Shown piece after piece: positions 35,077 through 39,200 of a stretch of DNA of 64,000 nt. A model generated the notes under the pieces. That model made no database searches. It saw only the letters and a list, made by a program, of their open reading frames with translations, and was not told the DNA's origin. Source of the stretch: a virus. Every line of letters starts with the position of its first letter. The first letter of the stretch is position 1. The position numbers and the translations under genes are program-made. The stretch lies in the IMG/VR virus record IMGVR_UViG_3300035698_019747, positions 32,001 to 96,000 of that record; one strand, written 5' to 3'.

Positions 35077-35379
35077 TTAAGAAATTTTAATTAATTTATT
35101 GAATATTTTTGGGTTTGAATCTATATACTCATTAATATCATCAATGCTATCAAAATATAAATAATCTGATGCGAGGGTTTCATATGATATATAAATATGA
35201 CACTTGACAAATAACTTACCATTTATCACACCTATTTGATTAACATCATTGGGTAATTCAACATTATCATCACTATACATTTTACCATTTTTAACATAAC
35301 CATCAATATATTCAATATCATATATAAGAATACTTATTATTAACAATGGGTTAGTATATTTACCTATTAATCCACACAT
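35077..35379 (-). CDS. Small paralog-family protein (Cas3-flanking family)
   Basis: C-terminal YFDSIDDINEYIDSNPKIF. Confidence 0.7.
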   Translation of the reverse strand: MCGLIGKYTNPLLIISILIYDIEYIDGYVKNGKMYSDDNVELPNDVNQIGVINGKLFVKCHIYISYETLASDYLYFDSIDDINEYIDSNPKIFNKLIKIS

Positions 35380-35380
35380 A

Positions 35381-35420
35381 TTTATTTATTTATTTATTTA
35401 TTTATTTATTTATTTATTTA
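35381..35420. repeat. (TTTA)10 microsatellite
   Basis: Perfect 40 bp tetranucleotide run. Confidence 0.95.
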
Positions 35421-35735
35421 TTATTTGAATACGCATAAATATATCCTCGTTATTTTCTATGAAATTGTCTATTTCAGATTACTGCCAAAATATATTACTA
35501 TTGGTGAAATATTAGAAGCTAAATTAAACAATATATAGACACTATATTTTTTGAATACTTTTTTCCCAGATATCATATACATATCAATATTACCATGATA
35601 TAATTTTTTATTATAACATGATCTAACTTCTTTTGAATTAACATCATAATACACAGTATCCACGAATTCCTTGTCATATATAGTGACAGAACTCACATCT
35701 CTTACCTTTATATAATTAGTCAAAACCCCACTCAT
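35410..35735 (-). pseudogene. Frameshifted member of the Cas3-flanking paralog family
   Basis: ...VIYFGS then the alternate frame reads SEIDNFIENNEDIF...*; one base missing near 35480. Confidence 0.65.
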
Positions 35736-35752
35736 TTGTTGTAAATTAATTA

Positions 35753-38038
35753 TTATGAATCTATGATACCAAACTCTAGATGATACACTTTATCGTATCT
35801 AATATATGGTGTATCTGAAAATCTTGCAAGTGATCTAATAGTATCTAAATTTAGATTCTTAAGTGCCCTTTTGTTCTTAATTCTCGCTTTATAATCAAAA
35901 CGCGAATCATTATCTAAGTTATTAATAGTTTTCCGTATTCTAGATGCTGTATATTCATCTTCCTTAAATTCAACACCAAAATCAGTTCTTAGTTGGTGTG
36001 TGAAAGGACCAACCCATTGATCATTATCATGGTGTTTTACAATAAAAAATACCTCTGAACCACTAGACCGCAAAGGATTACTACCAGCCACCTTAATATT
36101 ACCATTATTTACATTTTTAAAATATTCTTTAGGGTATATGTTACTCAGGTTTTTATAACTTTTAGATAATAACTTCGTATGATAATTATTTATATCACTA
36201 CTGTTTTTAATCATGAAAGCGTTATAAATTTCATATAATTTAGATAAGGTAATACTTTGTTTATTATATTTAGAAATTGTATCATACCACTTTTTATATA
36301 AACTGATATCATACTGAGTATTGATAGCACCCTCATTTGATTTATTAGTATTATCTACTGGTTTGTATATATAAACACTAGGTGTATTAAATTCACCCCA
36401 TCTATTAACTCTCCCGAAACGCTGCACAGTAGACTGTGGTGACATACAATCCTCATAAAGTTTATCAAATGAAACATCTAATGATGCTTGTAACATAGGT
36501 GTGCCAATTACATTGTCTTTTACTAAGGTGGGTTTGGACACTTTCCCATAAGCTTTCAATAAAAAATTTAAATCCTGATTTTTCTTATCATCTAAAAATA
36601 GACTATGTAATAAGAGTTTATAATCTTTACTATTATATTTCTTAATATCCTGAGCGTTTCTTATCGAATTCTTTATAACCAAAGAATTTGTATTAGGTAT
36701 AATAGAAGGTGGTTTATCAGATACTTCTAAATTATATGGCTTTGAATGCACAGGAGAGTAATGTTTACCATTGTTCGGCAATATAACTACTTTATTTTTT
36801 GAGCCAAACAAATTGCTTATACGCAACTCTAATAAAATAGGAGTCGCTGATAACATCATAGTTTTACTATTAGTAAAATTTTTTCTAATCGTTACGATAT
36901 CTATGAAAGCCGCCATTATCGCAGACTCTGTTATAAATTCATGGTATTCATCAAAAACAACATCAGATCCTAAAATTAAAGAAGATAAATCATAATGCTT
37001 CGTCTTAAAAGTAGGTGCTAAGAAGTTATCTATATTAGTTACTATAATATCTGATTCATATATAGGGACATCAGTATTTGAATCCTTAACCTCACCAGAT
37101 AAAAGAAGCTGAACGCTAGGTATATGATCAGTATTTAAATTAGTTATTTCTTCTAGTATTGACTTATAAACCGATATAGCAATAGTGTTTCTAGGAACTA
37201 CCCATAAAAGTTTTCTACCACTTTTAATACTCCACATCAAACCAGTAAGGGTCTTACCAAATCCAGCAGGGGCATTTAATATAATAGTATTATCTATATG
37301 ATTAGATATACCCTCCTGTACTTTAAAGCGATCATCATATGTATATGCCATATCACCTACATTAAATGATATTTTTTTCTGCATATCAAAGTAACTCTTT
37401 TCGACACTTTTATGACTTATTTCCGATAAACTATTAAAACCTGATCCAATTCTATCAGCAGTAATAACTAAACTTCTAAGGTATTGTAATTTTTGGGATT
37501 CTGTTTTATTTGATAGATAAAATAGAGGTGGTTCTGAATCGATATAACTATCCATATCAATAATATCATCATCCATATCATCATATACTTTTATATTATC
37601 CTGCCCTACTACTTTTTTTAGCGCATCTAACATGGGTTTAATATCGCCACTATATTCATCGTTATCAATTATAAGAGCTTTAATTTTACCACACCCCTTA
37701 CTATTACTATTAGTATTAACACCGTGATGCCAATGTACAATATTTAGAATATGTGACTTCCCCGTATAATCATCTTTAATAAACTTTTCTAGAAATGCCC
37801 ATCCTACTTGATTATGTCTATGGTTTTGACCCGATATATCCCCATTATCTTTCAACATGTTCTGGAATTTTTGAGTCAGTTTTCCTATATCATGTAGCTT
37901 TGCTGCCACTTCCAGAATATGAAGAAAATAATCACGTTGTTCCCCAACAGTGACATTTATAGATTTGAATAATATTTTTGTTACTTCCCACACTATTTCA
38001 CAGTGAAGTATATAACTTTGATCATTTTTTGCTAACAT
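35753..38038 (-). CDS. cas3: Cas3-like HD nuclease-SF2 helicase fusion (orphan)
   Basis: LAK...H, LHDIGK...FQ, RHNQVG, WHHG, ITADRIGS; helicase motifs APAGFGKT, FDEYH, SATP, LHSLF, QASLDV, QRFGRVNR. Confidence 0.9.
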   Translation of the reverse strand: MLAKNDQSYILHCEIVWEVTKILFKSINVTVGEQRDYFLHILEVAAKLHDIGKLTQKFQNMLKDNGDISGQNHRHNQVGWAFLEKFIKDDYTGKSHILNIVHWHHGVNTNSNSKGCGKIKALIIDNDEYSGDIKPMLDALKKVVGQDNIKVYDDMDDDIIDMDSYIDSEPPLFYLSNKTESQKLQYLRSLVITADRIGSGFNSLSEISHKSVEKSYFDMQKKISFNVGDMAYTYDDRFKVQEGISNHIDNTIILNAPAGFGKTLTGLMWSIKSGRKLLWVVPRNTIAISVYKSILEEITNLNTDHIPSVQLLLSGEVKDSNTDVPIYESDIIVTNIDNFLAPTFKTKHYDLSSLILGSDVVFDEYHEFITESAIMAAFIDIVTIRKNFTNSKTMMLSATPILLELRISNLFGSKNKVVILPNNGKHYSPVHSKPYNLEVSDKPPSIIPNTNSLVIKNSIRNAQDIKKYNSKDYKLLLHSLFLDDKKNQDLNFLLKAYGKVSKPTLVKDNVIGTPMLQASLDVSFDKLYEDCMSPQSTVQRFGRVNRWGEFNTPSVYIYKPVDNTNKSNEGAINTQYDISLYKKWYDTISKYNKQSITLSKLYEIYNAFMIKNSSDINNYHTKLLSKSYKNLSNIYPKEYFKNVNNGNIKVAGSNPLRSSGSEVFFIVKHHDNDQWVGPFTHQLRTDFGVEFKEDEYTASRIRKTINNLDNDSRFDYKARIKNKRALKNLNLDTIRSLARFSDTPYIRYDKVYHLEFGIIDS

Positions 38039-38051
38039 TATTTATAGTAAT

Positions 38052-38306
38052 TTAATTAGTTGGTAATTTATGAAGGTGTCTGAAAAACACAGGATTGTCT
38101 TCTATATACTCGTAAATATCATCCATGTTTTCAAAATAACAAACTGTTTTATAAGATGAATTAATAAAATTAATTACGATACTATAATTAGAGATTATCG
38201 CACCGTTTATTATTTTAAATCTGGTCTCTGTATCAGATAATTCTACCCAGTCACTTATATAAAATACTACATTCTTTATATATAACGTATCTATCACATA
38301 CTTCAA
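38052..38306 (-). CDS. Small paralog-family protein (Cas3-flanking family)
   Basis: YFENMDDIYEYIEDNPVFF. Confidence 0.7.
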   Translation of the reverse strand: MKYVIDTLYIKNVVFYISDWVELSDTETRFKIINGAIISNYSIVINFINSSYKTVCYFENMDDIYEYIEDNPVFFRHLHKLPTN

Positions 38307-38348
38307 TATAATCTATCCTATTAGGATTTATTAATCTAAATTTAACGC

Positions 38349-38639
38349 TCATATTATTTTATTAGTGCTAAAAACCTTACCAAATATATGCGGGTTTTCC
38401 ACAACATAATCATCTATTTCATCTTCATCTTTAAAGAAAATGGTGTGTTCTTCATTAGCCCCTCTAAACTTATAGAAAATTATTATATGAGGATTCATAT
38501 AAACCCTATTACCTACTATAATATATTTATTATTCGAGTTTGAAATATTCACATTTCCAAGTTTAACCTTACTATTATGCGTTCTAATATATTCTATACT
38601 ATACCCTTCTATTGTATCTATTTTTTTAAAATGATTCAT
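38349..38639 (-). CDS. Small paralog-family protein (Cas3-flanking family)
   Basis: NPHIII...FFKDEDEIDDYVVENPHIF. Confidence 0.7.
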   Translation of the reverse strand: MNHFKKIDTIEGYSIEYIRTHNSKVKLGNVNISNSNNKYIIVGNRVYMNPHIIIFYKFRGANEEHTIFFKDEDEIDDYVVENPHIFGKVFSTNKII

Positions 38640-38642
38640 ATA

Positions 38643-39008
38643 TTATTTAATTGAAAGTGAGTGGACTAATTTAATTACTTGTAAGTGATTAAATAATTGT
38701 GGGTTATCATCAATATATTCATCAATTCCCCCCACATCTTTGAAATATATATAAATATCACTGAACGCACTGCTAGTATAAAACCTTATTAGTATATATG
38801 GATTAATTTTAACCTCTTCATCAATATATACTAATTTATTATCAAGGTTATCTAGATCAAATTCAGTATTCACCCTGAATTTAGTAAATTTATCACGTTT
38901 TTTATCATAACTATATTTATATAAATTATCACATATTCTAGTCACATTATAATTTTTAATTATACCAGCGATATCAGTTGGTTTAATCATTACTTCCTTT
39001 TTTATCAT
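38643..39008 (-). CDS. Small paralog-family protein (Cas3-flanking family)
   Basis: NPYILI...YFKDVGGIDEYIDDNPQLF. Confidence 0.7.
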   Translation of the reverse strand: MIKKEVMIKPTDIAGIIKNYNVTRICDNLYKYSYDKKRDKFTKFRVNTEFDLDNLDNKLVYIDEEVKINPYILIRFYTSSAFSDIYIYFKDVGGIDEYIDDNPQLFNHLQVIKLVHSLSIK

Positions 39009-39192
39009 TTGTCCAAGTTTTTAAAATCTATTAAATATTCTTGGGTGGGTAACCCATATATTATCCCATATCATTATCAAAATATTTACAATTTCGGGTC
39101 TATAAATAAGAATACACTATTTATACCAATACTAGATATCATATTTTTCTTCACGTACCTTTCCAACATATATCTAAACTTTATATATTATG

Positions 39193-39200
39193 CAAATATA
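39193..39200 (-). promoter_or_regulatory. Putative Bacteroidota-type -7 promoter box heading the cas3 operon
   Basis: TATATTTG on the minus strand in the divergent intergenic region. Confidence 0.5.

Follow-up and report, generated by a model that had tools for sequence, protein, structure and literature searches.

A jumbo-phage Cas3 set apart from its CRISPR array: an atypical, broken-up member of a Cas8-less type I family

What would a phage do with a complete Cas3, the nuclease-helicase of type I CRISPR-Cas systems, when no Cascade gene stands beside it? The question is raised by a linear IMG/VR virus record of 152,402 bp (IMGVR_UViG_3300035698_019747; G000), of which positions 32001-96000 were analyzed as one stretch of 64,000 nucleotides, hereafter the window. 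Here, cas3 lies in a packed row of small paralogous genes, and an earlier note on the window, made without database searches, described it as an orphan lacking both Cascade genes and a CRISPR array. The interpretation offered in that note is partly supported by our analysis. The Cas3 is intact, an array of the matching repeat family is present in the same record, the loci of related phages are contiguous, and the contig lacks Cascade. The locus is genuinely an atypical, broken-up member of a Cas8-less type I family already known from giant phages. With moderate confidence, we propose that this Cas3 is the trans-acting nuclease-helicase of a minimal, distantly I-F2-like jumbo-phage system whose parts are dispersed, and whose Cascade genes most probably lie in the ~44% of the genome that is unassembled. 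The source is a salt-lake jumbo phage with an incompletely assembled genome: salt-lake metagenome runs, with no RNA run listed among them, contain G000 in short contigs at a word depth of ~4x, the genome has a G+C content of 28%, and the completeness of the record is estimated at ~56%.

The Cas3 gene (67.7-70.0 kb of the record; Table 1) was already called intact in the earlier note, and that description holds. The protein matches the Pfam models Cas3_HD, HD, DEAD (PF00270), ResIII (PF04851) and Cas3-like_C_2 (PF22590), the TIGR models cas3_HD (TIGR01596, above cut-off) and cas3_core, and, over its full length, the PADLOC families Cas3b (5.7e-47) and Cas3fv (1e-43). When aligned with 23 relatives, it keeps the HD residues H49/D50, H75, H104/H105 and D195, along with the helicase motifs GxGKT (259-263), DEYH (363-366), SAT (397-399) and QxxGRxxR (539-546). 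Changes fall at 5 of 139 highly conserved columns, a number equaled in the nearest relative, which has Cascade. The protein begins with its HD domain, without a Cas2 fusion, and among solved structures it comes nearest to the type I-F2 (I-Fv) Cas3 of Shewanella putrefaciens CN-32 (9G44_A, E 3e-72). As judged from its sequence, then, this is an intact nuclease-helicase with no sign of decay. Contigs from two salt-lake runs agree with the window as far as position 36967, inside cas3, beyond which their sequence is unrelated; this break may be a graph artefact, or may mark a second element that shares part of Cas3.

More than 320 homologs of this Cas3 were found, at 33-44% identity; the phage contigs that carry the clade span 140-600 kb, and those in IMG/VR are mostly of 140-420 kb. 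The typical locus of the clade runs Cas3-Cas7fv-like-Cas5-like-Cas6-array. A cas7 gene stands within 8 kb of cas3 in 32 of 35 related loci, the three exceptions having the most divergent Cas3s, and most of these 32 also carry a Cas5-like gene, Cas6 and an array, as detected with profiles seeded from three loci. The encoded proteins comprise a Cas7fv-like protein (PADLOC Cas7fv, 7e-14; Pfam Cas7fv-like), an unnamed protein of ~300 aa and a Cas6b-like Cas6, and no cas1, cas2 or cas8 family is annotated in the relatives' loci inspected. Clade arrays pair spacers of ~30 nt with 36-nt repeats that end in ...GGGAATCACAAC; the repeats have a hairpin of 3-5 bp with a covarying stem and a AATCACAAC tail. 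One such locus, ordered Cas7-Cas5-Cas6-array-Cas3, sits on a 44-kb contig of 27% G+C within a 'Bacteroidetes' metagenome-assembled genome (MAG); this contig (L056, the L-numbers being labels for compared loci and contigs) probably derives from a jumbo phage and was placed in the bacterial MAG by binning.

Among the loci examined here, G000 is the sole clade member without Cascade beside Cas3, and comparison with its closest relative, L013, shows where the difference lies. The two Cas3s are 44% identical, and the flanking genes are 61-74% identical. In L013, an epimerase gene, whose product is 72-74% identical to that of the epimerase in the window, directly abuts Cas3, and the order continues Cas3-Cas7-Cas7-Cas5-Cas6-mini-array; its upstream flank holds no genes where three paralogs stand in G000. 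In the window, these three paralogs part the epimerase from Cas3, and two further paralogs fill the Cascade slot downstream. The two tandem Cas7fv-like genes of L013 (3527-5597; 318 and 370 aa, with 24% mutual identity) take the place of the usual one.

The array of G000 lies 35.5 kb past the end of the window and 62 kb from Cas3. A k-mer scan that covered the full contig placed no array inside the window, and the earlier statement that there is no array stands for the window and falls for the genome. The 27 repeats comprise one degenerate copy and 26 near-identical 36-mers, of which 22 match the consensus exactly. The 25 spacers are each 30 nt long and unique, and their G+C content is 33%, versus 28% for the genome. 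An AT-rich leader lies at the left end of the array, and the variant and degenerate copies lie at the right. The repeat begins with ACTG, and terminal GTTG/CAAC pairing is therefore not possible; it has the clade hairpin and the ...GGGAATCACAAC tail, and the array is of the repeat family found with this Cas3 clade. G000 thus combines the clade Cas3 with 36-nt repeats of the clade type (small hairpin, AATCACAAC tail) and does not have the contiguous cas3-cas7-cas5-cas6-array locus. Its repeat is identical at 31 of 36 positions to that of L037 and L047, which represent a full locus on a 447-kb contig. We considered whether the array and Cas3 come from different lineages, as L037 has the nearest repeat but a Cas3 only 32% identical to that of G000; we abandoned this idea, since among the relatives Cas3 identity is barely correlated with that of the repeats (rho 0.20, p 0.11). 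The leader shows no clear conservation with the relatives' leaders. Spacers have no significant match in their own genome or in the fetched loci, four of them searched against IMG/VR with every sixth base free gave zero matches, and neither the Cas3 region (as DNA and protein) nor the array matches anything in the INPHARED phage database. The gene adjoining the array, which encodes a type IX secretion sorting domain, suggests a Bacteroidota host.

Neither Cas3 nor the array would be of use without Cascade, and both have stayed intact, so some Cascade is likely available to this phage. It would most simply come from the ~44% of the genome missing from this low-depth assembly, an explanation to which we give about an even chance. 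From the family and from type I-F2, we infer how such a dispersed system would work. Cas6 would cleave the repeat hairpin and leave a ...ATCACAAC handle; Cas5 and Cas7 would assemble on the CRISPR RNA and open an R-loop at the target; and Cas3 would dock on the Cas7/Cas5 backbone and degrade DNA belonging to a rival phage or to the host. New spacers would probably be written by host Cas1-Cas2. Arrays of Bacteroidota (Bergeyella zoohelcum, Capnocytophaga), which we take to be Cas13b (type VI-B) arrays as the Bergeyella repeat presumably matches the published Cas13b repeat, have the same 36-nt repeats, 30-nt spacers and identical ...GGNAATCACAAC end as the phage array. This common end suggests that the host is a member of the Bacteroidota and that its adaptation machinery is shared, and the use of that machinery by the phage would fit it. 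The bacterial arrays differ in that their repeats begin with GTTG, rather than with the ACTG of the phage, and in that their neighbors are open reading frames (ORFs) of 1119-1227 aa rather than type I genes.

Several observations weigh against a Cascade encoded in the same genome. In the 152 kb, read in six frames with profiles built from 17-26 relatives, Cas5, Cas6 and Cas7 gave no hit (best E 0.16-0.8), and tblastn and phmmer searches of the 152 kb recovered no Cascade gene. Pfam models of Cas6 and Cas1 likewise matched nothing in the 152 kb, Cas2 and Cas8 not having been searched for as such. Of the full type I locus that could have lain elsewhere in the genome, the contig beyond the window supplies the array, and the 152 kb hold no cas5, cas6, cas7 or cas1. 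The best PADLOC families over 144 genome proteins are, among the matches listed (25 top families, which weak Cas matches could escape), Cas3, methyltransferases and a few further candidate defense families (DolB, DruM, PDC). None of the IMG/VR contigs bearing Cas7 (30 loci by Cas7 profile) overlaps G000 at the DNA level, word-index searches with Cas7 yielded nothing beyond the proteins of the query itself, and the exact repeat occurs on no other contig in IMG/VR or the JGI metagenomes, where the matches were L004 or L037-type repeats. The array is placed between the gene of a type IX secretion substrate and a 3072-aa ORF, and relatives with enough flank have Cas6 beside the array. With no cas neighbor at either Cas3 or the array, at least two rearrangements or losses are needed, so that outright loss of Cascade is a real possibility. 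The completeness of ~56% is itself a mere estimate; at that completeness, Cascade can be called absent from the contig but not from the genome.

Outright loss is the main rival to a Cascade in the unassembled part, and we judge it rather unlikely. Under such a scenario, Cas3 and the array would be intact leftovers, recently orphaned or kept for another use, and no RNA-guided interference would occur. The absence of Cascade genes from the 152 kb is in keeping with this, as is the isolation of both Cas3 and the array from any cas gene, unlike in almost all relatives; moreover, the slot that follows Cas3 and holds Cascade in L013 here holds small genes, one of them already broken. Against loss, a Cas3 frame of 761 codons has stayed open in a genome of 28% G+C with all its motifs and no excess of change at conserved sites, 22 of 26 repeats match their consensus, the 25 spacers are all distinct, and the contig is only ~56% complete. 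Alternatively, the phage might contribute Cas3 and guides and borrow Cas6, Cas5 and Cas7 from a co-infecting related jumbo phage or from the host. Many jumbo phages have the same conserved repeat hairpin and handle, which makes it plausible that the array could be processed by the Cas6 of a relative; complementation of incomplete systems between phage and host has also been proposed for jumbo phages (PMC13037316). We nonetheless find borrowing improbable, since relying on co-infection would be a precarious strategy and hosts offer little sign of the missing parts. The Cas7 of this family occurs in 0 of 401 sampled Bacteroidota genomes, the positive control being the MAG contig L056, itself phage-like, and a pattern drawn from the phage repeats (those of G000 and L004) has zero matches in 185,579 species genomes. 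The bacterial arrays with the same repeat tail adjoin the 1119-1227-aa ORFs that we read as Cas13b rather than type I. The survey of 401 genomes and these bacterial arrays also make it unlikely that this Cas3 hijacks or poisons a host type I Cascade, as the earlier note had suggested.

A further suggestion is that the paralogs steer Cas3 as adaptors, regulators or inhibitors, either independently of CRISPR guidance or alongside it. All five copies in the 152-kb contig (profile search) lie within 1.3 kb of Cas3, co-oriented and with gaps of 3-42 nt, and they form one of only ~4 paralog families in the 152 kb. The family is old, at 20-38% identity, and four of its copies are still intact. On the other side, an exhaustive profile search across 1.84 billion representatives recovered, besides the five proteins themselves, a single match that proved spurious (the 2786-aa P0126, rejected as a repetitive coiled-coil), the family is found in 0 of 5 relatives' records, three of which are complete, and no paralog adjoins any other Cas3 of the clade. 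Paralogs that occur in relatives without Cas3 are thus not seen either. The paralogs also have no similarity to the Cas3, Cas5, Cas6 and Cas7 profiles, Cas3 itself shows nothing unusual, and a shared gene neighborhood says little, by itself, about binding. The cognate array favors ordinary, guided use, and together with the 32 of 35 relatives that have cas7 within 8 kb, it weakens the CRISPR-independent Cas3 with small adaptors envisaged in the earlier note. Steering by the paralogs thus appears doubtful to us. A composite of these ideas, in which Cascade is truly lost and the paralogs, as Cas3-binding adaptors or brakes, aim or restrain Cas3, perhaps with CRISPR ribonucleoproteins borrowed from co-infecting relatives, has in our view a slim chance.

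Whatever their role, the small proteins are true paralogs, with the pairwise identities given above and a C-terminal motif common to all five, as the earlier note had recognized. They share the minus strand with Cas3 in a packed row (35077-39008) ordered p121, p96, p84, Cas3, frameshifted paralog, (TATT)12 microsatellite and p100, beyond which follow further small genes and then a Dam-type methyltransferase gene. The closest pair, p84 and p100 (38%), stands on opposite sides of Cas3. The frameshift reported earlier in one copy is borne out: stepping one base back at CTG-AAA-TAG yields IDNFIENNEDIF..., in exact register with the family motif, which would fit the loss of one base in an A run. 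The frameshifted sequence recurs in an ENA contig, L045, which matches over 3315 bp at 100% identity, and in Logan contigs from salt-lake runs; these contigs may come from the same samples as the record. Contigs from the runs tend to break at the (TATT)12 microsatellite. Considered as anti-CRISPR or Cas3-binding proteins, the paralogs had no match in Pfam, PHROGs, PADLOC, PDB or Atlas. An AlphaFold model of p121 from a 5-sequence alignment (predicted local distance difference test, pLDDT, of 42) has six strands followed by a C-terminal helix and is too poor for a fold search, and the matches of an Atlas model of a paralog (pLDDT 0.38) were uninformative. On sequence comparison, the paralogs are a lineage-specific family without known relatives, and because they are packed tightly on the same strand, they are probably co-transcribed with Cas3. 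We regard them as accessory genes rather than as substitutes for Cascade, any tie to Cas3 being putative and drawn from position. The link between Cas3 and the paralog array may also be one of position only, as the earlier note allowed in proposing a chance insertion. With two genomes compared, the paralogs may either have colonized both flanks of Cas3 or have been lost in L013. The TATATTTG box that the earlier note took for a promoter heading this row is present, but its motif class, TAnnTTTG, occurs 110 times in the window versus 104.5 expected by chance, so the box is no evidence of a promoter; a scan for sigma-70 promoters gave counts equal to those in shuffled sequence.

Table 1. Coordinates of the features discussed. 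Positions are those of the window unless preceded by G000 (the whole record), with the corresponding contig positions in parentheses.
Feature	Position	Strand	Basis or remark
Cas3, 761 aa; HD nuclease, superfamily 2 (SF2) helicase and Cas3 C-terminal domain	35753..38038	-	Domain libraries, alignment
CRISPR array, 27 repeats	G000 131,594-133,346 (L002 11594-13346)		k-mer scan of whole contig
312-aa protein with type IX secretion C-terminal sorting domain	G000 130,563-131,501 (L002 10563-11501)	+	Por_Secre_tail, 2.3e-10; directly upstream of leader
3072-aa ORF converging on array end	G000 133,360-142,578 (L081 360-9578)	-	No Pfam, PHROG or PADLOC match
Paralog p121, 121 aa	38643..39008	-	First gene of co-oriented cluster; alignment; family profile match 9e-42
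Paralog p96, 96 aa	38349..38639	-	Alignment, family profile
Paralog p84, 84 aa	38052..38306	-	Stop 13 nt ahead of Cas3 start; alignment, family profile
Frameshifted paralog	35410..35735	-	88-aa frame 35469-35735; 20-aa motif-bearing tail 35410-35472, -1 frame
(TATT)12 microsatellite	35379..35426	.	Between frameshifted paralog and p100 ATG
Paralog p100, 100 aa	35077..35379	-	Alignment, family profile
phrog_31081 protein, 94 aa	34789..35073	-	Next in cluster, not a paralog; E 2.5e-18
NAD-dependent epimerase/dehydratase	39215..40129	+	Divergent from cluster; synteny anchor common to L013
TATATTTG box	39193..39200	-	Present

The proposed dispersed system can be placed among known ones. It resembles type I-F2 of S. 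putrefaciens CN-32 in its Cas3, and in that relatives of the G000 locus have Cas7fv-like proteins and no Cas8 or Cas11, so that Cas3 would be expected to dock on a Cas7/Cas5 backbone; the type I-F2 Cas3 docks on Cas7 and Cas5 without Cas8 (PMC12956352). It differs from type I-F2 in several respects. The Cas2-Cas3 fusion and cas1 of that system have no match in G000, the Cas6 of clade relatives is classical and Cas6b-like, and the G000 repeats and spacers measure 36 and 30 nt, versus 27 and 32 nt in type I-F2 (PMC12956352). The elements of the clade are also phage-borne, and Cascade genes were not found in the G000 contig. The closest likeness in kind is to the Cas8-less Cas3-Cas7-Cas5-Cas6 systems of jumbo phages, with which G000 shares the Cas3 clade, the repeat tail and hairpin, the 36/30 geometry, the lack of Cas1 and Cas2, and a giant-phage carrier; it differs from them in the 62 kb between Cas3 and array, the absence of Cascade from the contig, and the private paralogs that flank Cas3. 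The same comparison extends to CRISPR-Cas systems of huge phages without adaptation genes (literature cited in PMC13037316). The type I-F system of Vibrio phage ICP1 (PMC10161043) is likewise a phage-encoded type I system aimed at host elements or competitors, with Cas3-dependent cleavage of the target, but its locus is complete and contiguous, its Csy complex includes Csy1 (Cas8f), and its Cas3 belongs to another lineage and is a Cas2/3 fusion.

These distinctions bear on what the locus would mean. Should the closed genome prove free of Cascade, this phage would be a natural example of a type I system pared down to its effector nuclease and guide array, and such a pairing would bear on the modularity of CRISPR parts and on how far they can be shared among co-infecting giant phages. 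If Cascade instead lies in the missing half, the locus would amount to no more than a rearrangement within a family that giant phages are already known to carry. Under both outcomes, position alone makes the small paralogs candidates for new Cas3-associated accessory proteins.

Elsewhere in the window are genes for a ClpB-like double AAA+ ATPase (6005-8041), an enzyme of the CCA-adding/poly(A) polymerase family (1508-2632), an S1-domain protein (46960-48024) and the Dam-type N6-adenine methyltransferase (33030-33839), all of which are usual huge-phage cargo.

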